Positions 1 through 10,110 of a stretch of DNA of 20,133 bases are shown here, piece after piece (position 1 is the stretch's first letter; each line of letters starts with the position of its first letter). This stretch comes from a virus. Lineage: Duplodnaviria > Heunggongvirae > Uroviricota > Caudoviricetes. Location of the stretch: the IMG/VR virus record IMGVR_UViG_3300020160_002689, positions 1-20,133 of that record; one strand, given 5' to 3'. The translations under genes were made by a program, and so were the position numbers. Below the pieces are notes generated by a model. That model worked only from the letters and a program-made list of their open reading frames with translations. It did not search any database and had not been told where the DNA came from.

Positions 1-30
1 TTATACAATACTCTAATTTTATTTGTAATC

Positions 31-62
31 AAAAAAGCCTGTTAGAAAACTAACAGGCTTTT
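31..62 (-). terminator. Intrinsic terminator downstream of leader ORF 88-186 (candidate attenuator terminator)
   Basis: Minus strand AAAAGCCTGTTAG-TTTT-CTAACAGGC-TTTTTT: perfect hairpin followed by a U-tract. Confidence 0.85.
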
Positions 63-87
63 ATATTTTTATTAATACTTTTATATA

Positions 88-186
88 TTAACTTAATGTA
101 AAGACATAGTTAGTTTGGTTCGTAAAACAATCCTGATCCTGCATCGGCTGCGGCATAACTACTATATTTTTATTTACATTTTTCAT
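88..186 (-). CDS. Putative leader peptide, 32 aa (MKNVNKNIVVMPQPMQDQDCFTNQTNYVFTLS)
   Basis: Hand-translated ATG(186) to TAA(88). Upstream promoter block and downstream terminator match the leaders at 8588-8677 and 9715-9816. Contains a GC-rich codon run CCG CAG CCG ATG CAG GAT CAG GAT. Confidence 0.7.
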   Translation of the reverse strand: MKNVNKNIVVMPQPMQDQDCFTNQTNYVFTLS

Positions 187-191
187 AATAC

Positions 192-250
192 TATATATTA
201 ACTTTTTATTGTTCCTTTTTGTTTTTTTCTATTTTTATACTACAAAAGTA
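192..250 (-). promoter_or_regulatory. Tandem promoters: Bacteroidota-type -7 box TACTTTTG (243-250) and TTAATATATA motif (192-201)
   Basis: Block closely repeated at 8683-8752 and 9822-9881; TAnnTTTG is the known Bacteroidota housekeeping -7 consensus. Confidence 0.7.
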
Positions 251-275
251 ATATAAAGTTTTCAATCAACCTAAT

Positions 276-437
276 TTATTCTTTAAATTTTTTAAAATTT
301 TTTATTTTTTTTGTCTTTTCCTCAAAATTTAACTGATTTCTAAGGTTATTAATAGTTGCATAACTTGCACCAGTCATTAAAGTAATACTTGTATTACTTT
401 CACCTTGTTTTATTAATCTTTTGATTTGTTCATTCAT
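276..437 (-). CDS. Small putative helix-turn-helix protein, 53 aa (not in ORF track)
   Basis: Hand translation MNEQIKRLIKQGESNTSITLMTGASYATINNLRNQLNFEEKTKKIKNFKKFKE; HTH-like pattern; TATCTTTG box at 442-449 ends 4 nt before the ATG. Confidence 0.6.
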   Translation of the reverse strand: MNEQIKRLIKQGESNTSITLMTGASYATINNLRNQLNFEEKTKKIKNFKKFKE

Positions 438-474
438 TTGACAAAGATACAACTTATTTTTAAATCACCAAACT

Positions 475-1419
475 TTAATTTAAGATTGATTCATTTTTAT
501 AATTATGATTTAAGGTAATTCTCAAGAAAGTTCTACGTTTACCTTTACTAATAAGTAAAGTTTCATGAGGTGTATTACTTGACATAAAATATAATTGATT
601 CTTTTCAAATATAACTTTTCTATCATCAGTTAATTGGTCTTCCATTTCAGTAAAAGCTCCTTCTCCTAAAATCTCACCATAGAACTCACCATCCCAAGCT
701 TGACATCCAACTTCTGTTGATACAGTTAAGATACCACCTTTACTTTCTGATACATAGTCTGCAATTGGAATAATAATATCTTTATATGGTAATACCCAGT
801 CCATTTTAACATGTGAGTTATCTGCTTTTTCTTCATATTTATCAGTATAACTAAATCTTGCACCACCCCAAGTAGCACCACCCCAGGATGATTTTAAATG
901 CTTGTCAGTTTTATATTCTGCACCACCCCAACTTGGTAAAGGTTCTGCACCACCCCAAGAAGCTTTAAATTCATCTTCATATTCATCAACATCATCAAAG
1001 AAATCAGGATCTAATACATCTTCAATAGTTGTCTCATTAATTTTTCTAAACTTAGGATCCACACAGAAGTTACCATCAATGTGTACTCCTTCTCTTCTTA
1101 GAAATTCATCTGTAGTGAAGAATTTTGTATCTATTGTAATATAGTGTTTGTTTGCACCTTCTTGTAAAGGAATTTTTTTAAGAACATCATTAAATGATTG
1201 TTCCCATATTTTAAATCCTTCTGGTAGAGAAACCCATTCTCCAGTATTTTCAAATGGCATTACACTTAATTTTAAATCACCAAACTCAGGGTCTGGAAGT
1301 TGAACTTCTCCTAATTGTTTAACATGAGTCTTATGAAAGTTAACATTCTCAATTAACTTAATGGTTGGTTTACTTTCTAAACTTGCTTTAAATTTTTCAC
1401 TATTCTTTAAGTATTTCAT
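475..1419 (-). CDS. Putative 2OG-Fe(II) dioxygenase-like protein with acidic/WGG-repeat insertion
   Basis: HxD (REGVHIDG), distal His (NTPHET) and C-terminal RTFLRIT strand, as in the double-stranded beta-helix oxygenase fold. Confidence 0.6.
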   Translation of the reverse strand: MKYLKNSEKFKASLESKPTIKLIENVNFHKTHVKQLGEVQLPDPEFGDLKLSVMPFENTGEWVSLPEGFKIWEQSFNDVLKKIPLQEGANKHYITIDTKFFTTDEFLRREGVHIDGNFCVDPKFRKINETTIEDVLDPDFFDDVDEYEDEFKASWGGAEPLPSWGGAEYKTDKHLKSSWGGATWGGARFSYTDKYEEKADNSHVKMDWVLPYKDIIIPIADYVSESKGGILTVSTEVGCQAWDGEFYGEILGEGAFTEMEDQLTDDRKVIFEKNQLYFMSSNTPHETLLISKGKRRTFLRITLNHNYKNESILN

Positions 1420-1436
1420 ACTATTACTTTATTTTA

Positions 1437-1679
1437 TTATACTAAACAAGCATCTATATCAATTGTTTGTTGTTCAGTTAAACCTTCTGAGAACCAATCT
1501 TTGTCTAACATAATTCTTAAATGTTCTACATTTCTATTTAATCGGTCTTGTTCTTCTTCTGTTAAAGAGGGTTGTGATTTCAATTCATTAATTAAATTAA
1601 CAGAATCAAATGCAGCAGATATAGATCTTTGTAATTGTTCAGTGGTTTCTTCTTCTGGACTAAGTGGTTGTAATTTCAT
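1437..1679 (-). CDS. Hypothetical phage protein
   Basis: 80-aa ORF in the minus-strand gene run; SAAFDSV...RNVEHL motif recalled from small phage proteins. Confidence 0.65.
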   Translation of the reverse strand: MKLQPLSPEEETTEQLQRSISAAFDSVNLINELKSQPSLTEEEQDRLNRNVEHLRIMLDKDWFSEGLTEQQTIDIDACLV

Positions 1680-1684
1680 AATAA

Positions 1685-2245
1685 TTATTTATTTTTTCTT
1701 TTTATTCTAAATGATTGATATGATTGTATATATTTAATATTTTCAACATAAGTATAACTATCTTTATATTTATCAATAAATGTAAAATCTTTAGAGTCTA
1801 ATTGAAATCCAAATCTATTAAAAAATTCAACTAATTCTCTAATAGTTTCATCCTCAAATCCAAATTCTGTTTCTTTATCAAATTTAGATCCAAATCCATT
1901 ATAATGTGTAACATTAACCTCACCTGGCATTGATATTGTAAATGCAGAGACCATTGAATCTCCATATGTTATATCAATATTAAGTTTAAGATTATCTGGA
2001 TTTGCATCAGTGCCATCATTTGTTTTAACCATATGAATATCAAATTCTATAGTATCTGGTTCACCATCATCATTTACATCATTTGGACCTTCAAATGTTT
2101 TTTGATACCAAATAGCTTGTATCAAATCACCATTTATAGTTAAATCTGTTTGATTCAACTCAAAGTCACCATTATCAGTAACTAGTTTTAATTTCTGTGG
2201 TAAATATTTTCTCCAATATTCTTTATCAAAAATTGATATAGCCAT
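1685..2245 (-). CDS. Hypothetical protein (likely start MAISIFDK at 2245 rather than 2323)
   Basis: Long ORF; TTTATATATA motif variant at about 2264-2273 lies upstream of ATG 2245; the 2323 start would overlap the upstream gene. Confidence 0.7.
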   Translation of the reverse strand: MAISIFDKEYWRKYLPQKLKLVTDNGDFELNQTDLTINGDLIQAIWYQKTFEGPNDVNDDGEPDTIEFDIHMVKTNDGTDANPDNLKLNIDITYGDSMVSAFTISMPGEVNVTHYNGFGSKFDKETEFGFEDETIRELVEFFNRFGFQLDSKDFTFIDKYKDSYTYVENIKYIQSYQSFRIKRKNK

Positions 2246-2306
2246 TATTATATTTCTTTTATGTATATATAAAAAAATAAAGTCAAGATTTCTCTTGACT
2301 TCACTT

Positions 2307-3566
2307 TTAGTATAATAATTCACTTTCTATATAAACATCATAATCTTCTAATACATCTAAATCTTTAAAATCTAAATCTGGAAGATACTCAATTATATCA
2401 TTTCTATCACATTTTGTCTTATGACCACCATTTTTAGTTGTATAGAAAACATTTAGATTAAATCCATTCCATTCAATTCTTGAATAATGTACTTCTAATG
2501 AAGTTAACAATTCTTCAATCTTTCTTTTCTCATATTGAACTCTTTTCTCATGTAAATCTACTGCAACTATTTTAGTTGTTGTATGATTAATATCTATATA
2601 AGAAACATAATTAAATGGTTTATCATGAATATAGTTTCTTTTAATTTCAGGTTTTGATTGTAATGAACCATAAGCATAAGTCTTATCAAGATTTTTTGCT
2701 TGGTAGTTTGCCAATGCTGCAATGTTCTCTTTTTTACCAGAGTAATTACCTGTATTGAATCTACTATCATAGTATTCATCATCCCAACCTGCACCCCATC
2801 CATAAGATGTACCACCATACCAATCATCATACTCAACTTTTGAAGGATCTCTATCAACAGGTAATTCATTCCAACTAACAGTCAAACAAGCAACTGCAAG
2901 TTTTCTTAAATGTTCAATATCTTGTCTTTCAGAGAAAGTATGTTCAGAGTAATAACCTACAGAAATGTTTGTACACTCTGGATAGATACTTGTAAATTGA
3001 ATAGAGTCTGTTAAAACACCATTCTTATCTAATTTATAATCAAATGTTTTGTTAATTAAGTTTAATTCATCAGCAAGAGCTTGACCAAATTTATCTGAAC
3101 AAGAACGTTTAGAACTTTGAAATGTAATAATTGAATCTGTACCTCTTCTATCAAATGATATAACTTTGTTTATACCTGGTATTTTTTCTACTTTTTGTAC
3201 ACCTGCTACTTTTTTAGAACCTATACAACCTACTTCTTCACCTAAGAAAAAGTAATAAAGACCTGGTACATTATGTTCAATCATATACAACATAATTGTA
3301 ACACCTGCTTTATCATCTGCACCTAATATAGATTTACCATCAGTTTTGATAATGTTTTTTTGAAAGATATGGTTAACCTTACAAAGTGCTTTAGTTGCAG
3401 TATCTAAGTGAGAAGTAAACATAGCATCACTCTCACCAATCTTGATAAATAAGTTACCAAACTCATCTTCTTTCAAATCTTTGTTAAGAAGGTGGAATAG
3501 CTCTCTCTCAGTACCATGAGGGTAAGTTCTACTTGTTAATTCTAAAAACTTTTTTGTAATATTCAT
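2307..3566 (-). CDS. Zinc metallopeptidase, M28/M20 clan
   Basis: SHLDT, GADDKAG, GEEVG, FDRRG, TDS and distal EH metal-ligand motifs; TATCTTTG promoter box at 3593-3600. Confidence 0.85.
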   Translation of the reverse strand: MNITKKFLELTSRTYPHGTERELFHLLNKDLKEDEFGNLFIKIGESDAMFTSHLDTATKALCKVNHIFQKNIIKTDGKSILGADDKAGVTIMLYMIEHNVPGLYYFFLGEEVGCIGSKKVAGVQKVEKIPGINKVISFDRRGTDSIITFQSSKRSCSDKFGQALADELNLINKTFDYKLDKNGVLTDSIQFTSIYPECTNISVGYYSEHTFSERQDIEHLRKLAVACLTVSWNELPVDRDPSKVEYDDWYGGTSYGWGAGWDDEYYDSRFNTGNYSGKKENIAALANYQAKNLDKTYAYGSLQSKPEIKRNYIHDKPFNYVSYIDINHTTTKIVAVDLHEKRVQYEKRKIEELLTSLEVHYSRIEWNGFNLNVFYTTKNGGHKTKCDRNDIIEYLPDLDFKDLDVLEDYDVYIESELLY

Positions 3567-3653
3567 TTTGCTTTTTTTTGCTCTATTAAATACAAAGATA
3601 TAACTTTTTTTGATTTAATCAAAAGAATAACTAATTATTTTAATATATATCTT

Positions 3654-5897
3654 ATGTTTACAATAAATTCAAATTCTTTAGATGGTACAATAACCATATC
3701 AGACAAATTTAATATATCTGCCACTGCATCTGATGTAGATGCAACTCCATATCTTAATGAAATAGATTCTGAATATATTCTTAGTTTTGGTAACTTAGAA
3801 GGTGTTAGTAAATTTACCAAATTTATTTATGATACACTAGGAATGACTGATACAAGATATTTAGTTCAATATTATAGACTATCAAGAGATGGTGAGAGAT
3901 GGACTGATTGGTATGATCTTAAAAAGAATATTGATAACTTTCCTACTATTGATCCAAAAGATAAACTAAACATTGATATTAAATGGGTAAGAAAAGGAAC
4001 TAATAAAATTGGTTCTATTAGAATATTGGAATATTCATTAGAAGGCATTATTGAAACAACATCTGTAATAGATGATGGTTCGACTGCTGTAATTGATGCA
4101 GGTGAGACCCAAATTATAAAACCACCTTACATCTTCAAAGTTTTTAGAATTGATGATGTAGAGATTATATCATCTACTGGTGTACCTGATGATTCTCTGA
4201 AATACAGATACTCTCAAGATAATGCAAGAACTTGGTCTAATTGGGAAGTTTTAACTAAAGAAAATATTAAAACTAAAAGATTTACTCCAGTAAGATTCTT
4301 CCAAGTTGAATACTCAATAGAAAATACATCAGGTTCTCAAATAAGAGTTCAGGATATTAATCTTATTGGTAACTTTCAAAATGTAACATTAGATTCTCAA
4401 AAAAGTAACTTATATGGGATAAGAGAATGTTGTCAATCTAATATAAATGGTGCTTATGATGCAAATGGTAATTTCATACCTAATACTAACTTAAACTCAA
4501 GTAGTTCAAGTTCTGGTGCAGCAGGTGGTGGAAATTGTGCAACACCAGCCACTTATAAACCAATGACTGCTGACCAACAAGCACTTCTTTATAATCCATA
4601 TAATCAAAATACTGCAGTTAATCTTCTTAATCAATTAAGTAATGATGCTCAGTTAATGTTTGGACATCAAGTTATTTATTTTGCAACAGACCCAGATAAA
4701 AATGGTTATGACTATTCATTACATGAATACTCTTTATATAATATAGTTTGTCAAGGTGACCTTAGAATATCAGTTGAGAATAATAATTTTCCTGATAGTC
4801 AAGTAGTAATGAATCAGTTTGATTTGAACTTATTCTCAACAATGGAAGTTCATGTTACTAAAGAACAATTCAAACAAATATTTGGTGTTCAAAGAAGACC
4901 AAGCAAAGAAGACTTTTTATACTTCTGTAATCTAAATAGAATGTATATTGTTGATCATGCTCAACAATTCAGAAGTTTCAACAACTCTGCAGTTTATTAT
5001 AAATTGATATTGAAAAAATACAACCAAAAAGCAAATATTCAATCTGGTACAACTGAAATTAAAAACCAAATGGATATGCTTACACAGAACTCAACTATTG
5101 ATTCATTATTTGGAGTTGAAATAGCACAAGATAAAGCAAGTATTGCCAATAAAGACCAATTCAAACCTTTAACTAAAGATCCTATCAGATTAAAATATCT
5201 TGCCACAATAGATAAAGAGTTAATTGAAAATTCTTCTACTGTAATATCTAAATCTCACTATGATTTATCATCTGTTGATTTTGGAACACCTGCAGTTGAA
5301 TATTTCAATTTAGATCCTTTATTAGAAGTATCTGATAATATTGGTTTCACTATATGGTTTAGTATTAATAATTATATATTAGATGAATATTATAATATGT
5401 TTGACTATTATGATAATCCAAATAGTTTAGGTTGGTCTGTTAACTTACAGAATGATAAAATTATAGTAATGTTAAATGAAAATCAATATGACTTTGACTT
5501 TGGTACAGGTGATGTAATTGAGTTAGAAGAAGAAACTTGGTATTGTTATGTACTTAATGTAGACCAAAGAAACAGAACAATTTCACAATATATCTATAAG
5601 AGAAATGTTGAATTTGAAGATGATGCTGCTAGATTAACAAGTACAGTATTAAAGAAAGTTCACTCTAATGAACAAGTTATTGAACCTGTTAATTATCAAC
5701 TTGAAGGAGTTGACCCTGTTATATTAGGTTCTGATATGAAGTTAACAAATGTTAGATTATTCCTTGATGTAATTCCAGAAGATACACATAATAAGATACT
5801 TAACCAATATGTAATTAGAGAAGACTCTAAATATCTTGTATTTGCAGATAATGCAAATACAAGATTATACTTACCAAATTTTCCTTTATTTGAATAA
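3654..5897 (+). CDS. Virion structural protein: T4 gp14-like neck/head-closure domain plus C-terminal LamG-like domain
   Basis: Central FGHQVIYF...EVHVTKEQF...RPSKEDFLYF...YKLILKKY resembles the gp14 family; C-terminal FTIWF...WYCYVLNV is LamG-like; TTAATATATA at 3640-3649. Confidence 0.65.
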   Translation: MFTINSNSLDGTITISDKFNISATASDVDATPYLNEIDSEYILSFGNLEGVSKFTKFIYDTLGMTDTRYLVQYYRLSRDGERWTDWYDLKKNIDNFPTIDPKDKLNIDIKWVRKGTNKIGSIRILEYSLEGIIETTSVIDDGSTAVIDAGETQIIKPPYIFKVFRIDDVEIISSTGVPDDSLKYRYSQDNARTWSNWEVLTKENIKTKRFTPVRFFQVEYSIENTSGSQIRVQDINLIGNFQNVTLDSQKSNLYGIRECCQSNINGAYDANGNFIPNTNLNSSSSSSGAAGGGNCATPATYKPMTADQQALLYNPYNQNTAVNLLNQLSNDAQLMFGHQVIYFATDPDKNGYDYSLHEYSLYNIVCQGDLRISVENNNFPDSQVVMNQFDLNLFSTMEVHVTKEQFKQIFGVQRRPSKEDFLYFCNLNRMYIVDHAQQFRSFNNSAVYYKLILKKYNQKANIQSGTTEIKNQMDMLTQNSTIDSLFGVEIAQDKASIANKDQFKPLTKDPIRLKYLATIDKELIENSSTVISKSHYDLSSVDFGTPAVEYFNLDPLLEVSDNIGFTIWFSINNYILDEYYNMFDYYDNPNSLGWSVNLQNDKIIVMLNENQYDFDFGTGDVIELEEETWYCYVLNVDQRNRTISQYIYKRNVEFEDDAARLTSTVLKKVHSNEQVIEPVNYQLEGVDPVILGSDMKLTNVRLFLDVIPEDTHNKILNQYVIREDSKYLVFADNANTRLYLPNFPLFE

Positions 5898-6277
5898 TGA
5901 GAGTAGTTAAAACATTTGAAGATTGGAGTAGTCAAAGTTTTGGATTTCAATATAAGCCATATAATGATAAGATAGAAGAAGACTTAAATGGACTTCTTGT
6001 TGAAGTTATGGATATGGGAATTGATATAAAGATTAGTCGGATAGGTAGTAATGGATTTATGTTAGATTTTTCATCTAATAAGGGATTTGATACAGAAGTA
6101 TTAGTTGAGTATGTTTTAACTATTGAAGATTATATTGTAGATAAATATGGTAGTAAATACTCATTTGAATATAAATTGGCACCTGTAGGGGATGATAAAC
6201 CATATATTAGGCATAAAAAGCTAGAAGGTGGTATATTAGTAACTAATTTAACAATGGAAGTTATGAATAGAAAATAG
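5897..6277 (+). CDS. Hypothetical protein, coupled to the upstream structural gene
   Basis: TAATG stop/start overlap at 5897; N-terminus MRVVKTFEDW. Confidence 0.75.
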   Translation: MRVVKTFEDWSSQSFGFQYKPYNDKIEEDLNGLLVEVMDMGIDIKISRIGSNGFMLDFSSNKGFDTEVLVEYVLTIEDYIVDKYGSKYSFEYKLAPVGDDKPYIRHKKLEGGILVTNLTMEVMNRK

Positions 6278-6457
6278 TTAATATTTATTAACTTTTTCCT
6301 CATAGCCATGTCCTGTTTCAGATATGGCTATTTTGATTTCTAAACCAGTTTTATCATCTATGACAATAACTGACTTTTTATTAACTTTTATAACTTTACC
6401 AGTGTGAATGTGTTTTGTATGGGGTACATGAAACTCTATTATATTACCTACTTTCAT
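6278..6457 (-). CDS. Small SH3/KOW-like protein, 59 aa (not in ORF track)
   Basis: Hand translation MKVGNIIEFHVPHTKHIHTGKVIKVNKKSVIVIDDKTGLEIKIAISETGHGYEEKVNKY; TAATG overlap with the nucleotidase stop. Confidence 0.65.
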   Translation of the reverse strand: MKVGNIIEFHVPHTKHIHTGKVIKVNKKSVIVIDDKTGLEIKIAISETGHGYEEKVNKY

Positions 6458-6897
6458 TACTTTATCAAATAATCAGTTATTGATTTCCAATCAGGGAATT
6501 TTTCTTTACCAAAGTGTAACCACTCACCTTCAAACTCAGGTTGACCAGCTTTATTATCATCATCAATTAATAAATCACCTTTTAATAATGATTTATCACC
6601 TGCCATAATAGTTTTTTGTACAACATCATATCCTAAGTAATCCCAAACCCATTGAGCTTTCTCAGTTAATGAATTAACATTTCTAAATGATGGTCTTGTT
6701 AAAATCCAAACATCGTAATGTTCTTTAAGTAAATTAAATGCTTCTATTGCTCCTTCCATTGGTTCAAGTTTTAGGAAGAATCCCCATCTAGATTGTGGGT
6801 ATTTTTGACTTGGTGTTTCTAATAAGTCTTTCTCAAATGCTCCTCTGAAATTACAAAGGACACCATCCATATCTATGTATAATCTTTTCTTTTTCAT
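6457..6897 (-). CDS. 5'(3')-deoxyribonucleotidase, HAD superfamily (NT5C type)
   Basis: YIDMDGV motif I, ILTRP motif II, K...GDLLIDD motifs III/IV; TATCTTTG box at 6921-6928. Confidence 0.9.
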   Translation of the reverse strand: MKKKRLYIDMDGVLCNFRGAFEKDLLETPSQKYPQSRWGFFLKLEPMEGAIEAFNLLKEHYDVWILTRPSFRNVNSLTEKAQWVWDYLGYDVVQKTIMAGDKSLLKGDLLIDDDNKAGQPEFEGEWLHFGKEKFPDWKSITDYLIK

Positions 6898-6935
6898 AAT
6901 TATTATATTAAATTATTTTACAAAGATACAAAAAT

Positions 6936-6969
6936 AAAAAGACATTATCAAATTAGATAATGTCTTTTT
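6936..6969 (-). terminator. Intrinsic terminator closing tRNA array A
   Basis: AAAAAGACATTATC-TAATTT-GATAATGTCTTTTT hairpin immediately after the last tRNA. Confidence 0.85.
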
Positions 6970-6973
6970 GTTG

Positions 6974-7054
6974 AGCTAGTGACAGGATTTGAACCTGCGA
7001 CGTTGGAGTTCCTACTTACAAGGTAGGTGCAATCGACCACTATGCGACACCAGC
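6974..7054 (-). tRNA. trnT: tRNA-Thr(TGT), extended variable region
   Basis: GCTGGTG/CACTAGC acceptor; CCTAC-CTTGTAA-GTAGG anticodon arm; 12-nt variable region; GCAGG-TTCAAAT-CCTGT T arm. Confidence 0.9.
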
Positions 7055-7062
7055 ATTTTATG

Positions 7063-7136
7063 AGCTTCTCATTGGATTCGAACCAATAACATCCACATTA
7101 CTAAAGTGGTACTCTGGCCAGTTGAGCTAGAGAAGC
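7063..7136 (-). tRNA. trnT: tRNA-Thr(AGT), A34
   Basis: GCTTCTC/GAGAAGC acceptor; CCACT-TTAGTAA-TGTGG anticodon arm (U31-U39 mismatch); standard T arm. Confidence 0.85.
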
Positions 7137-7145
7137 ATATTTTAG

Positions 7146-7233
7146 AGGTATAGGTAGGATTTGAACCTACGATGATGAAATTAATCATTACAGTTTTGCA
7201 GACTGCACCTTTCGACCACTCAGGCACTATACC
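7146..7233 (-). tRNA. trnC: tRNA-Cys(GCA), long variable arm
   Basis: GGTATAG/CTATACC acceptor, U73; GCAGT-CTGCAAA-ACTGT; 19-nt variable region. Confidence 0.9.
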
Positions 7234-7242
7234 ATTTTTCAG

Positions 7243-7315
7243 AGCTTCTGGACGGGCTCGAACCGACGACATCCTCATTACAAGTGAGGTGCTCTACCAA
7301 CTGAGCTACAGAAGC
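7243..7315 (-). tRNA. trnT: tRNA-Thr(TGT)
   Basis: Canonical cloverleaf; CCTCA-CTTGTAA-TGAGG. Confidence 0.95.
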
Positions 7316-7320
7316 ATTAG

Positions 7321-7391
7321 AGGTGCTGACTGAATTTGAATCAGTGTAGGAGGTTTTGCAGACCTCTGCCTAACCACTCGGCCACAGCACC
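7321..7391 (-). tRNA. trnC: tRNA-Cys(GCA)
   Basis: Canonical cloverleaf; GAGGT-CTGCAAA-ACCTC; U73. Confidence 0.95.
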
Positions 7392-7393
7392 AT

Positions 7394-7972
7394 TTATTTT
7401 ATTTCTAAAAGATTTTCATGTATTTCTCTATGACAATTTGCACATACTAAAATACACTTATCTAATTCATCTTTAATCTTATCCCAAGCTGTACACATAT
7501 TTTTTGATAGTGTAAAATCTTTTTTAGAGGGATCCAAATGGTGAAACTCTAATGCGGATACACACTTATTATATTCACATATAACACATTTACCACCTTT
7601 ATATTCTACTGCTTTTTCTTTTGTTCTTTTTCTAAATGTTTTTGTTCTTATATAGTTAGACTTTCTTCTATCATCATCACTATCAAATGTAAACTTTTTA
7701 TTCTCACCATATTTGGTAACGGTACTTCTACCTACACCAAATTCCTTCATTGTTTCCTCTATAGAATTTAGTTTATAAAATTCTTTCAATTTTTCAATTT
7801 CATCTTTATCTAACTTTTTACCAGAATTAAGACCTATATCATTTAACATTTCACTCTTACAAAAGTAAGAAATTAAACTTCTAGAACAATTTAATTCTTT
7901 TTGTATTTCTCTATAGCTTTTACCTTGTTTTCTTAGTAAAATTATATTTTCTTTTTTAGAACCTTCAACCAT
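7394..7972 (-). mobile_element. HNH homing endonuclease with N-terminal HTH, inserted in tRNA array A
   Basis: HTH (GKSYREIQKELNCSRSLISY); CxxC...LEFHHLDP...CANCHREIH; own TTAATATATA motif at 7990-7999. Confidence 0.9.
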
Positions 7973-8019
7973 AACATATCTTTTTATGATATATATTAAT
8001 TTTTTGGTTCTACCTTTTG

Positions 8020-8092
8020 TTGGTACTGTGGGTTACGATCCCACTACCTTTCGCGTATCAGGCGAATGCTCTACCGAGTGAGCTAAGTACCA
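8020..8092 (-). tRNA. trnI: tRNA-Ile(GAT)
   Basis: TGGTACT/AGTACCA acceptor; TTCGC-CTGATAC-GCGAA; atypical T-loop ATCGTAA. Confidence 0.9.
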
Positions 8093-8100
8093 ATATATTG

Positions 8101-8174
8101 TGATTCCTGTAGGATTCGAACCTACGACCTCTTGCATGTTAAACAAGCGCTCTTACCAGCTGAGCTAAGGAATC
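8101..8174 (-). tRNA. trnV: tRNA-Val(AAC), A34
   Basis: Canonical cloverleaf; CTTGT-TTAACAT-GCAAG. Confidence 0.9.
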
Positions 8175-8179
8175 TCTTG

Positions 8180-8262
8180 TAGGTCTACTCGGACTCGAAC
8201 CGAGATTATACTTCACGTCTCTTCCATGTAAAAGAAGGATGTTGCCATTACACCATAGACCT
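8180..8262 (-). tRNA. trnV: tRNA-Val(TAC), extended variable region
   Basis: AGGTCTA/TAGACCT acceptor; CTTCT-TTTACAT-GGAAG; 16-nt variable region. Confidence 0.88.
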
Positions 8263-8268
8263 ATTTAG

Positions 8269-8349
8269 TTGGCACAGAGGGATTTGAACCCACATTTTCA
8301 ACAACCATTTACAGTTCTCCAACTTATCAGGTTGGGCTGGTATGTGCCA
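8269..8349 (-). tRNA. Arm-rearranged tRNA-like RNA with Ile(GAT) anticodon arm
   Basis: Perfect 7-bp acceptor TGGCACA/TGTGCCA and a T arm; anticodon arm CCAAC-CTGATAA-GTTGG only 7 nt after the acceptor; D-loop-like TAAATGG lies 3' of it. Confidence 0.75.
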
Positions 8350-8354
8350 ATATG

Positions 8355-8441
8355 CTACTGGGGTGGGATTCGAACCCACGGTGGAGCTGTGCTCATCAGA
8401 TTAACAGTCTGAACCGTTCGGCCAACTACGGCAACCCAGTA
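8355..8441 (-). tRNA. trnN: tRNA-Asn(GTT), long variable arm (Tyr-like scaffold)
   Basis: TACTGGG/CCCAGTA acceptor, G73; TCAGA-CTGTTAA-TCTGA; variable hairpin GAGC-ACA-GCTC. Confidence 0.88.
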
Positions 8442-8447
8442 ATTTTG

Positions 8448-8518
8448 CTCTCCCACCAGGACTCGAACCTGGAATAACTGATTAACAGTCAGACGTGATA
8501 CCATTTCACCACAGGAGA
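8448..8518 (-). tRNA. trnN: tRNA-Asn(GTT)
   Basis: Canonical cloverleaf; loop CTGTTAA; G73. Confidence 0.93.
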
Positions 8519-8527
8519 ATATTTATA

Positions 8528-8563
8528 TAAAAGAAAAGACCCAAACTTTATGTTCGGGTCTTT
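8528..8563 (-). terminator. Intrinsic terminator between leader A and tRNA array A (candidate attenuator)
   Basis: AAAGACCCGAAC-ATAAA-GTTTGGGTCTTT-TCTTTT, ending about 10 nt before the first tRNA. Confidence 0.88.
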
Positions 8564-8587
8564 AGAAATTGTTTATAATATATGAGT

Positions 8588-8677
8588 TTATACTATACAT
8601 AACTGCTTACCCGATGTTGTGTTATTCACACAATTCGTAATCGTAATCACATTAATATTTATAGTAGTTGTTTTCAT
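8588..8677 (-). CDS. Leader peptide A, 29 aa (MKTTTININVITITNCVNNTTSGKQLCIV)
   Basis: Hand-translated; 22 of 29 residues are T/I/N/V/C, the amino-acid set of the downstream array. Confidence 0.85.
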   Translation of the reverse strand: MKTTTININVITITNCVNNTTSGKQLCIV

Positions 8678-8682
8678 TGTTT

Positions 8683-8752
8683 TATATATTAAATTTTTAT
8701 TGTCCCTTTTTGGTTTTTTTGTTTTTCTTTGATTATTTATAGTACAAAAGTA
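8683..8752 (-). promoter_or_regulatory. Tandem promoters for array A: TACTTTTG (8745-8752) and TTAATATATA (8683-8692)
   Basis: Same block as 192-250 and 9822-9881. Confidence 0.7.
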
Positions 8753-8772
8753 ATATAAAGTTTTTAATCTAC

Positions 8773-8997
8773 CTAATCTTTTATTATTTTTTTTAATTTA
8801 TTTTCTCTTTCTTCTCTAAGAGTAACATCTTCAGCTATTTCTTTATTGAATATAAGATATGTTGATCCACAACTATCACAATACCACCCATCAGTGTTCC
8901 AAGGTAAATCCTCAGGTGAATATTCAATTTCATCCTTCTTACAATGTAAACAAGGTTTCACTTCATATATCTTATCTTCAACTTTAATTAGTTTCAT
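8773..8997 (-). CDS. Small zinc-ribbon protein
   Basis: CLHC and CDSC pairs; C-terminal RENKLKKII motif. Confidence 0.75.
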   Translation of the reverse strand: MKLIKVEDKIYEVKPCLHCKKDEIEYSPEDLPWNTDGWYCDSCGSTYLIFNKEIAEDVTLREERENKLKKIIKD

Positions 8998-9010
8998 ATC
9001 TTAGTTTTTG

Positions 9011-9091
9011 TACAGGTAGTCGGACTCGAACCGACACTCTTTTCAGAACACGGTCCTAAGCCGTGCGCGTATACCATTTCGCCATACCTGC
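9011..9091 (-). tRNA. trnL: tRNA-Leu(TAG)
   Basis: CACGG-CTTAGGA-CCGTG; class II variable arm; A73. Confidence 0.95.
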
Positions 9092-9102
9092 ATATTTTTT
9101 TG

Positions 9103-9185
9103 TACCGAGAGCGGGACTCGAACCCGCACATCCTTTCAGATAATAGCCTCTTAAACTACCGTGTCTACCATTCCACCACCTCGGC
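9103..9185 (-). tRNA. trnL: tRNA-Leu(AAG), A34
   Basis: Leu scaffold GCCGAGG...TCTCGGT-A; GTAGT-TTAAGAG-GCTAT; a shifted register giving TAA does not pair. Confidence 0.85.
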
Positions 9186-9195
9186 AGGTGATTAG

Positions 9196-9276
9196 TACCC
9201 CAGATAGGATTCGAACCTATATTTTCAGTTTCCAATTACCCGTAGTTGTTTAGAAGACAACTGGGACTACTGAGGC
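9196..9276 (-). tRNA. Arm-rearranged tRNA-like RNA with Arg(TCT) anticodon arm
   Basis: GCCTCAG/CTGGGGT acceptor; GTTGT-CTTCTAA-ACAAC 8 nt after the acceptor; D-loop-like TAATTGG 3' of it; ATAGG-TTCGAAT-CCTAT. Confidence 0.75.
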
Positions 9277-9284
9277 ATATTTTG

Positions 9285-9369
9285 TATCGGGAGAGGGACT
9301 CGAACCCTCACGGACATTACTGTCCACAGATTTTTAAGACCTGCGTGTCTACCATTCCACCACCCCGAC
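9285..9369 (-). tRNA. trnL: tRNA-Leu(TAA)
   Basis: CAGGT-CTTAAAA-ATCTG; class II variable arm GGAC-AGTAAT-GTCC. Confidence 0.95.
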
Positions 9370-9372
9370 AGA

Positions 9373-9459
9373 TGGTACCGAGAGCGGGACTTGAACCCGC
9401 ACGCCACAAGGGCACAAGATTTTAAGTCTTGCATGTACTACCAATTTCATCACCTCGGC
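9373..9459 (-). tRNA. trnL: tRNA-Leu(TAA), with encoded CCA
   Basis: CAAGA-CTTAAAA-TCTTG; 3' end TCTCGGT-A-CCA. Confidence 0.95.
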
Positions 9460-9466
9460 ATTATTT

Positions 9467-9570
9467 AATTAATAGTAGGACTCGAACCTACACTAAGTTT
9501 ATTTCATCCTTAGCCATATCCTCTATATCTCTGTATAAAGTTAGGTGTTTACCAGTTCCACCATATCAAT
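9467..9570 (-). ncRNA. 104-nt tRNA-like element with no canonical anticodon arm
   Basis: ATTGATA/TATTAAT acceptor, Leu-type D arm GTG-GAACTGGTAAA-CAC, T arm GTAGG-TTCGAGT-CCTAC; 52-nt non-canonical middle. Confidence 0.6.
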
Positions 9571-9572
9571 TG

Positions 9573-9644
9573 TGACCCCACAGGGATTCGAACCCCGATT
9601 GAAAGCTTAGAAGGCTTTAGTCCTATCCATTGAACGACAGGGCC
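9573..9644 (-). tRNA. trnR: tRNA-Arg(TCT)
   Basis: Canonical cloverleaf; AAAGC-CTTCTAA-GCTTT. Confidence 0.95.
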
Positions 9645-9653
9645 AATTTAAAA

Positions 9654-9687
9654 CAAAAAACCCAAAACTTTTTGAGTCTTGGGTTTT
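9654..9687 (-). terminator. Intrinsic terminator between leader B and tRNA array B (candidate attenuator)
   Basis: AAAACCCAAGACT-CAAAA-AGTTTTGGG-TTTTTTG, ending about 10 nt before the first tRNA. Confidence 0.88.
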
Positions 9688-9714
9688 GTTATTTGTTATA
9701 ATACTTTTAATTGA

Positions 9715-9816
9715 TTACCAACTAAAATCATTTCCAAATTGAGCAAAACCCATCCCTTGTCTTAAAGATAAGACAGTCAGTGTTAAGTTTCTTCTATTTA
9801 GAATTGTTGTGTTCAT
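9715..9816 (-). CDS. Leader peptide B, 33 aa (MNTTILNRRNLTLTVLSLRQGMGFAQFGNDFSW)
   Basis: Hand-translated; 5 Leu and 3 Arg (all AGA) codons within codons 6-19, matching the Arg(TCT)/Leu array. Confidence 0.82.
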   Translation of the reverse strand: MNTTILNRRNLTLTVLSLRQGMGFAQFGNDFSW

Positions 9817-9821
9817 AATTG

Positions 9822-9881
9822 TATATATTAAAGTTTTATTCTCTCTTTTTGTTTATTTGTTATTTTTATAGTACAAAAGTA
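9822..9881 (-). promoter_or_regulatory. Tandem promoters for array B: TACTTTTG (9874-9881) and TTAATATATA (9822-9831)
   Basis: Same block as 192-250 and 8683-8752. Confidence 0.7.
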
Positions 9882-9906
9882 TAAAAAGTTTTCTATTGTA
9901 CCTAAT

Positions 9907-10110
9907 TTATTTTAATTTATTTTTAATTTTTTCTGTAATCTTCTCTAAACTTGATTTAGATTTAGGTTTTTGTTTTGGAAATCTACCATGGTTTCCCATA
10001 CTATCATAGTCTGTACATTGATATGCTGCAGGTGATGGTAATCCACTATAGTAACAGAATTCTTCTTCACTAAGTATTTCTTCTTGTTCTTGGTTTTCTT
10101 TTGGATTCAT
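9907..10110 (-). CDS. Hypothetical protein
   Basis: 67-aa ORF coupled to the upstream gene; FCYYSGLPSP motif. Confidence 0.7.
   Translation of the reverse strand: MNPKENQEQEEILSEEEFCYYSGLPSPAAYQCTDYDSMGNHGRFPKQKPKSKSSLEKITEKIKNKLK

Follow-up and report, generated by a model that had tools for sequence, protein, structure and literature searches.

Sequence evidence for a probable leader-peptide attenuator ahead of a Gln/Pro/Asp tRNA array in a phage genome

At the left end of the window, by which we mean the whole stretch of 20,133 nucleotides analyzed here, the minus strand carries a compact cassette (cassette 3) that is probably a trp-type, ribosome-mediated (leader-peptide) transcription attenuator gating an array of tRNA genes for glutamine, proline, aspartate and possibly methionine. 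Computationally, the cassette has the hallmarks of such attenuators: a leader ORF, control codons matched to the genes downstream, an intrinsic terminator, a pairing of the leader with the terminator (2:3) and a competing pairing (1:2). It departs from them in its target, as the regulated genes are tRNA genes and not genes for amino-acid biosynthesis, transport or aminoacyl-tRNA synthetases. An earlier note on this DNA had read the cassette as the third attenuator in the window, and this reading is supported by permutation tests, by the frame specificity of the codon match, by the choice of rare codons and by conserved 2:3 and 1:2 pairings.

The anatomy of the cassette is directly observed. 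The 32-codon ORF, the perfect terminator and the promoter block proposed in the earlier note are all present, and every coordinate given there proved correct. From the promoter side towards the contig end, the features are as follows:

269..274, minus strand: upstream element TTAGGT (-33-like), conserved in all cassettes of five phages
243..250, minus strand: TACTTTTG, conserved in cassettes 1-4 and also found upstream of ordinary genes
192..201, minus strand: TTAATATATA, a phage promoter-like motif, 5 nt ahead of the leader-3 ATG
88..186, minus strand: leader ORF of 32 codons plus stop, called as an ORF and open in homologues
156..173, minus strand: segment 1, 5' strand of helix 1:2 (anti-antiterminator), from the RNAalifold consensus and RNAfold of the window's own leader
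130..156, minus strand: control codons 11-19, ATG CCG CAG CCG ATG CAG GAT CAG GAT (MPQPMQDQD), an identical 27-mer in 4 IMG/VR contigs
109..116, minus strand: antiterminator site AAACTAAC, codons 24-26 within the ORF, pairing with 54..47
96..112, minus strand: segment 2, 3' strand of helix 1:2, with a 4-nt overlap with the antiterminator site
31..62, minus strand: intrinsic terminator with 5' arm 62-50, loop 49-46, and 3' arm plus T-run 45-31, from folding and a terminator scan
1..16, minus strand: probable 5' end of a tRNA-Gln gene, its first 16 nt, cut by the contig end; 14 of 16 bases equal those of the relatives' first tRNA-Gln(UUG)

The window comprises bases 1-20,133 of a phage contig from IMG/VR that measures 84 kb, has a G+C content of 28% and is estimated by CheckV to be 40% complete. 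This contig breaks off 30 nt past the cassette-3 terminator and the record holds no DNA to the left of position 1; with its own array off the contig, the blind test of cassette 3 was therefore run on relatives. A search of IMG/VR returned the exact terminator in no other contig, while the 27-base core of leader 3 is identical in four contigs of 79-132 kb, which show an identity of only 75-86% across the cassette. A degenerate core pattern yielded 18 true homologues in metagenome contigs; nine further IMG/VR matches to this pattern were discarded, as they all represent a single unrelated phage gene, richer in GC and not accompanied by tRNAs. BLAST against GenBank phages located the cassette at about 70% identity in the megaphages LR745206.1 (635 kb) and LR756502.1 (642 kb). 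The records of these two megaphages (~640 kb) carry no annotation of any kind. For those of their own genomes that exceed 634 kb, Al-Shayeb et al. predicted replication in Bacteroidetes (PMC7162821; PMC9723777).

The homologues retrieved with the degenerate pattern were chosen for their core, so the conservation of that core is unusable as evidence. A query made from a flank without the core recovered the same four contigs only, so that any estimate of conservation of the leader-3 core carries ascertainment bias. The five close relatives are not independent samples. Contigs from two DNA runs were placed on window 1-1500, the best of them ending at position 86, and contigs of two RNA-library runs gave short pieces only over the same interval, one of which (95-126) derives from a relative.

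In all 20 related loci with downstream DNA, the two GenBank megaphages included, the only tRNAs assigned in the array behind cassette 3 are those for Gln, Asp, Pro and Met. The 138 tRNA genes in these loci comprise 52 for Asp, 46 for Gln, 31 for Pro and 6 for Met, with 3 left unassigned by ARAGORN, and no tRNA for any other amino acid was found among them. Gene order and copy number differ between loci and the amino-acid content is constant. The earlier note had predicted tRNAs for exactly these four amino acids downstream of the cassette, and the prediction was borne out in 20 of 20 loci, all of them in relatives; a model built on two arrays thus correctly predicted an unseen third. Its further, optional suggestion of Asn, Val and Lys tRNAs failed: none occurs among the 138 genes, and the corresponding residues come from an N-terminal MK(T/N)-type stretch that is alike in all of the leaders. 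We note that Pro, Gln, Asp and Met are the amino acids left over after the other arrays, and that the prediction could consequently have been reached by elimination; the permutation tests described below are unaffected by this.

The window's own array evidently starts at position 16 and runs towards position 1, with the contig breaking inside the first gene. The 16-nt tRNA-Gln-like start lies at the same distance from the T-run as in the relatives. Across the loci the T-run and the first tRNA are separated by about 14-25 nt, which leaves no room for a promoter and implies that the array is transcribed only via readthrough of the terminator.

The arrays also contain elements that are not conventional tRNA genes. 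Several relatives have, as the first gene past the cassette-3 terminator, a tRNA-like sequence that ARAGORN does not call (L052, L059 and L061 as the first gene; further such sites at L063:6290-6370, L064:6260-6340 and, in G002, near 98369, oriented coordinates). Its presumed anticodon loop, TTGGA, would make it a Pro-UGG species, its D region is odd, and it may be a non-canonical tRNA. ORFs with HTH/NUMOD-type domains, judged by eye in the relatives, interrupt the tRNA arrays at differing places (window 7394-7972, minus strand; also G001, G002 and G004). These ORFs look homing-endonuclease-like and may drive rearrangements of the arrays.

The cassette-3 terminator is a perfect 13-bp stem closed by a 4-nt loop (62..33), with a T-run that reaches position 31. 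Within the first 10 kb we found 12 terminator-like sites against 2.9 expected, and the three strongest are the terminators of cassette 3 and of the window's two other cassettes. Among the homologues the stem of this terminator exists in at least six versions, whose outer pairs show compensatory changes. In every variant 25-32 nt lie between the stop codon of the leader and the hairpin, despite ORF lengths of 31-35 codons and differing spacers.

The pairing of the ORF with the terminator that had been claimed earlier was recovered: AAACTAAC (116..109) pairs with GTTAGTTT (54..47), spanning the 5' arm and part of the loop, through 8 bp at -7.7 kcal/mol (shuffle P 0.09). The alternative pairing is conserved across relatives. 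An in-ORF (A/G)ACTAAC, invariant but for the A/G, is complementary to GTTAGT(T/C) in the 5' arm or loop of the terminator, and GTTAG(T) is kept in at least six otherwise differing terminators. One change is compensatory, the window having AAACTAAC/GTTAGTTT where most relatives have AGACTAAC/GTTAGTCT; one stem type accepts a G-U pair in its terminator while retaining GTTAGTC, and one unrelated stem bears TTAGT in its loop. All ten variants of the cassette-3 terminator pair best with the same site in the ORF (shuffle P 0.001-0.09). When duplexes between the ORF 3' halves and the terminator 5' halves were compared across the six cassettes of a genome, the cognate set ranked second of 720 permutations in three genomes and fifth in a fourth.

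Competing with this duplex is a long hairpin, helix 1:2, which joins leader nt 14-31 to nt 75-91 through 16 pairs and places the control codons in its loop. In an RNAalifold consensus of 15 sequences this helix is 94% paired with four pairs changed on both sides, a level reached by 1 of 500 shuffles, and controls in which the partners were slid by 1-3 columns gave 22-52% pairing. The four compensatory pairs are all contributed by a single megaphage lineage (W02), and the other megaphage (W01) breaks several pairs. RNAfold of the window's own leader returns the same long 1:2 hairpin together with the terminator. We regard helix 1:2 as supported but not proven by these comparisons.

These pairings suggest a mechanism of the following kind. 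Transcription would start at the shared promoter block, and a ribosome would translate the 32-codon leader. Were the nine control codons (CCG, CAG, GAT and ATG) decoded quickly, the ribosome would pass over the in-ORF ACTAAC, helix 1:2 would re-form behind it, the terminator (3:4) would fold and transcription would end. Were tRNA-Pro, -Gln, -Asp or -Met limiting, the ribosome would stall in the loop that separates segments 1 and 2, keeping these apart and leaving ACTAAC free to capture GTTAG(T) of the terminator 5' arm (2:3); no terminator would form and the polymerase would read into the tRNA genes. The net effect would be negative feedback on the supply of those same tRNAs. We infer translation of the ORF, ribosome-polymerase coupling and the direction of the switch; the coupling, and leaderless initiation in the presumed Bacteroidota host, enter the model as assumptions.

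The window's own 2:3 duplex is weak in comparison with the terminator (-7.7 versus -13.6 kcal/mol), which would require a kinetic switch, like that of the trp leader. Equilibrium folding of the full leader always retains the terminator, and the switch is seen only in a model of the nascent RNA, where a ribosome placed at codons 12-14 before the 3' arm has been made lets the RNA fold into 2:3. A modelled ribosome at the stop codon likewise frees ACTAAC, and the truncated RNA again shows 2:3, so that equilibrium folds alone do not fix the direction of the switch. This would also suit a reverse, feed-forward arrangement, where smooth translation of the leader with plentiful tRNAs would give readthrough and stalling would give termination. 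We nevertheless consider such an arrangement improbable: the control codons lie upstream of the antiterminator site in the loop of helix 1:2, which is the classical geometry of induction by shortage, a ribosome stalled on them frees segment 2 instead of covering it, and feed-forward control would bring no homeostasis.

The leader ORF is open in 18 distinct homologues, including the two 70%-identical megaphages (31 and 35 codons), and in G002 it is open only from an internal ATG. At the leader start of G002 (L010:2728-2757) three small changes close the frame after three codons (ATG AAA ATG TGA); the same changes also give this region perfect complementarity over 13 nt to the ORF's 3' end, and the core is in frame from the internal ATG, where translation of this leader would have to begin. 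L060, the nearest metagenome relative of G002, has an intact leader start.

Nine consecutive Pro, Gln, Asp and Met codons form the core of leader 3. The earlier note had remarked on its GC-richness, which is genuine and reflects an anomaly of codon choice: in 59 long ORFs CCG makes up 0.00 of the Pro codons and CAG 0.11 of the Gln codons, whereas the core uses CCG twice and CAG three times. Compared with random back-translation, the synonymous choice in leader 3 has P<5e-5 and the six leaders together give z=-12.9, and, relative to phage genes, the six leaders favor the rarest synonymous codons. CCG and CAG are the codons that tRNA-Pro(UGG) and tRNA-Gln(UUG) read through U-G wobble, the weakest form of reading. 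Wobble-read codons are what would be expected of a sensor of tRNA supply, and this explains the GC-rich core. The cassette-3 leaders of the megaphages have different cores (..PVNPQPQDQDPM.. and ..QVQRQVVVDQDQPD..), keep the enrichment in Pro, Gln and Asp and still stand before Pro/Asp/Gln arrays.

A specifier sequence would likewise be complementary to the anticodons it reads, as the leader codons are to those of the array. Direct sensing in the manner of a T-box would exploit this: without any ribosome, triplets of the leader would bind free tRNAs at their anticodons and thereby stabilize one fold. The match is, however, specific to the reading frame. Over all leaders 37% of the triplets in frame 0 match the array, against 12-13% in frames +1 and +2, and for leader 3 the in-frame count of 8/31 compares with 0/31 and 3/31 in the other two frames. 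Conservation extends to the start codon, to the open frame and to the fixed spacing between stop codon and hairpin, and direct sensing would need nine different adjacent triplets to be read simultaneously. A search of window 1-10100 against Rfam at E<=1 returned tRNAs and sub-threshold chance matches to unrelated families, with no T-box, riboswitch or leader family; nothing was matched in cassette 3 at this threshold, where neither a T-box Stem I with its specifier loop nor the T-box sequence is seen. We thus judge direct tRNA sensing very unlikely, and ribosome-mediated attenuation remains our preferred reading.

Cassette 3 is part of a larger system. This genome and four close relatives each have six such cassettes where the contig covers them, and cassettes 1, 2, 4, 5 and 6, re-derived here in the genome and its relatives, likewise consist of a codon-matched leader, a terminator and a tRNA array:

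Cassette 1: array of Arg-UCU/Leu tRNAs
Cassette 2: array of Asn/Ile/Val/Cys/Thr tRNAs
Cassette 3: array of Gln/Pro/Asp tRNAs
Cassette 4: array of Lys/Trp/Phe/His tRNAs
Cassette 5: array of Tyr/Glu/Ile-UAU/Gly/Ala tRNAs
Cassette 6: array of Arg-ACG/Ser tRNAs

Cassette 6 lies within the region of the Lys/Trp/Phe/His array (genome 34499-34576, oriented) and its leader is rich in Ser and Arg (..SSSSSSRSS..). It precedes tRNA-Arg(ACG) and tRNA-Ser(UGA), as it does in G001, G002, G004, L065 and L069, and bears a TTAATATATA-type element only, without the upstream promoter block.

For every combination of leader and array we took as score the fraction of leader codons readable by the array's anticodons, and all pairings were permuted. 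With six leaders and six arrays there are 720 possible pairings, and the true one scores higher than any other in G001, G002, G004, LR745206.1 and LR756502.1, at the codon and the amino-acid level alike; in two incomplete genomes it is the best of 120 and of 6. The leaders of the megaphages LR745206.1 and LR756502.1 are strongly diverged, and their arrays, laid out differently from those above, amount to natural experiments. In both megaphages, arrays 1 and 2 are merged (L067, L071) and share a leader containing a mixture of Leu, Asn, Thr, Val, Ile, Arg and Met codons, and array 5 is split (L066, L070) into a Glu/Tyr block with a Tyr/Glu-rich leader and an Ile-UAU/Gly/Ala block with an Ile/Gly/Ala-rich leader. 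The composition of the leaders changes to match the merging and splitting of the arrays, which is co-evolution of the two. Small ORFs and hairpins abound in AT-rich phage genomes, and an ordinary small gene with its own terminator, with the array expressed by leak-through or from an unrecognized promoter and the amino-acid match incidental, is hardly credible given that the true leader-array pairing is uniquely best in five genomes, that no downstream tRNA among the 138 is assigned outside the four predicted amino acids, that leader codon usage is unlike that of phage genes, that leader composition follows the array merges and splits, and that the gap between T-run and first tRNA is no more than about 14-25 nt.

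The promoter block upstream of the leader is, as had been claimed, common to the cassettes. Identity of 77-81% links window 180-316 to three other blocks: those at 8671-8817 and 9812-9932, ahead of the other two small ORFs in the window, and one at genome positions 51331-51444. Within it, TTAGGT, 18 nt upstream of TACTTTTG, is a putative promoter element, and TACTTTTG itself fits the -7 promoter motif of Bacteroidota, TAnnTTTG. A scan for the sigma-70 consensus was uninformative, with 57 matches against 60.7 expected. The third element, TTAATATATA, is found nine times in the window, where 0.73 occurrences would be expected, and its copies stand 4-28 nt from start codons. Its behavior suggests a promoter rather than a ribosome-binding site, and as such it would yield a leader mRNA that is leaderless or nearly so.

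A second exact copy of TTAATATATA lies at window 82-91 (minus strand), between the stop codon of leader 3 and the terminator, and is found in this genome only. Transcripts begun at this copy would not contain the antiterminator site, and all of them should terminate; the copy may be due to chance. On the other side of the promoter block, ending 2 nt ahead of it, is an ORF of 58 aa (window 276-452, minus strand) with a weak Pfam match to an HTH of the Trp_repressor family (E=7e-4, below the cut-off). Next to this is a 314-aa ORF (window 475-1419, minus strand) that contains four repeats of an SWGGA/TWGGA-type motif and has no match in Pfam; its region shows about 71% DNA identity to a stretch of the megaphage LR756504.1.

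A sensor of ribosome speed that gates tRNA genes would show giant phages matching tRNA supply to demand for each codon family. Attenuation would also explain why the arrays stay sorted by amino acid despite shifting gene order and copy number. Beyond cassette 3, we tentatively suggest, as a possibility we hold with some doubt, that the six cassettes form a modular, codon-family-resolved feedback network running a nearly complete phage tRNA set, with sensors placed in the weakest, wobble-read (NNG) codons that would measure decoding capacity and induce no tRNA block other than the one in short supply. Such a network could serve as an inducible counter-defense and a natural, re-programmable tRNA sensor; if it exists, depletion or cleavage of tRNAs by a defending host would, for example, induce the block concerned, and phage tRNA genes would be linked to the tRNA-targeting defenses of the host. 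At about 160 nt, and apparently re-programmable, the sensors are compact parts.

Leader-peptide attenuation is a textbook mechanism that has been described for amino-acid and synthetase genes, and the control of tRNA genes is generally thought to be at the promoter. A full-text literature search, together with the megaphage papers (PMC7162821; PMC9723777), returned no description of leader-peptide attenuation of tRNA genes, and the text of the Nature megaphage paper contains neither 'attenuat' nor 'leader'. On the present reading of the sequences, what would be new here is the use of tRNA genes as the target, the giant-phage carrier, the six parallel sensors over nearly the whole code and a possibly leaderless transcript.

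The closest counterparts are the multivalent leader-peptide attenuators of enterobacteria, thr (with Thr and Ile codons) and ilvGMEDA (with Leu, Val and Ile codons), which stand beside trpL, hisL, leuL and pheL. Like thr and ilvGMEDA, cassette 3 combines a short leader, translated in those systems and predicted to be so here, with clustered control codons for several amino acids, segments pairing as 1:2, 2:3 and 3:4, and an intrinsic terminator. Rare synonymous codons appear as sensors in the enterobacterial attenuators as well, the rare CUA codon of leuL being an example. The differences lie first in the target, since thr and ilvGMEDA control biosynthetic enzymes and thereby amino-acid supply, whereas cassette 3 would control tRNA genes and close the loop on tRNA supply. 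Moreover, cassette 3 is phage-borne and has five parallel sensors beside it, the six together covering nearly every amino acid; its control codons are located in the loop between segments 1 and 2, and its transcript may be leaderless.

In the pheST attenuator of E. coli, a leader peptide with codons for one amino acid controls phenylalanyl-tRNA synthetase. Both pheST and cassette 3 would thus govern a component of the translation apparatus that serves the amino acids of the leader; pheST is cellular, controls a synthetase and senses a single amino acid, whereas cassette 3 is viral. T-box riboswitches resemble cassette 3 in using codon-anticodon complementarity and a choice between terminator and antiterminator. 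A T-box, however, senses the state of a specific tRNA without a ribosome, through one specifier codon and conserved Stem I and T-box motifs, whereas the match in cassette 3 is frame-specific and the Rfam search found none of these motifs. Also close are cassettes 1 and 2 of the same window, which share the promoter block, the codon-matched leader, the terminator and the tRNA array, and from which cassette 3 differs in the amino acids it would sense, Pro, Gln, Asp and Met.
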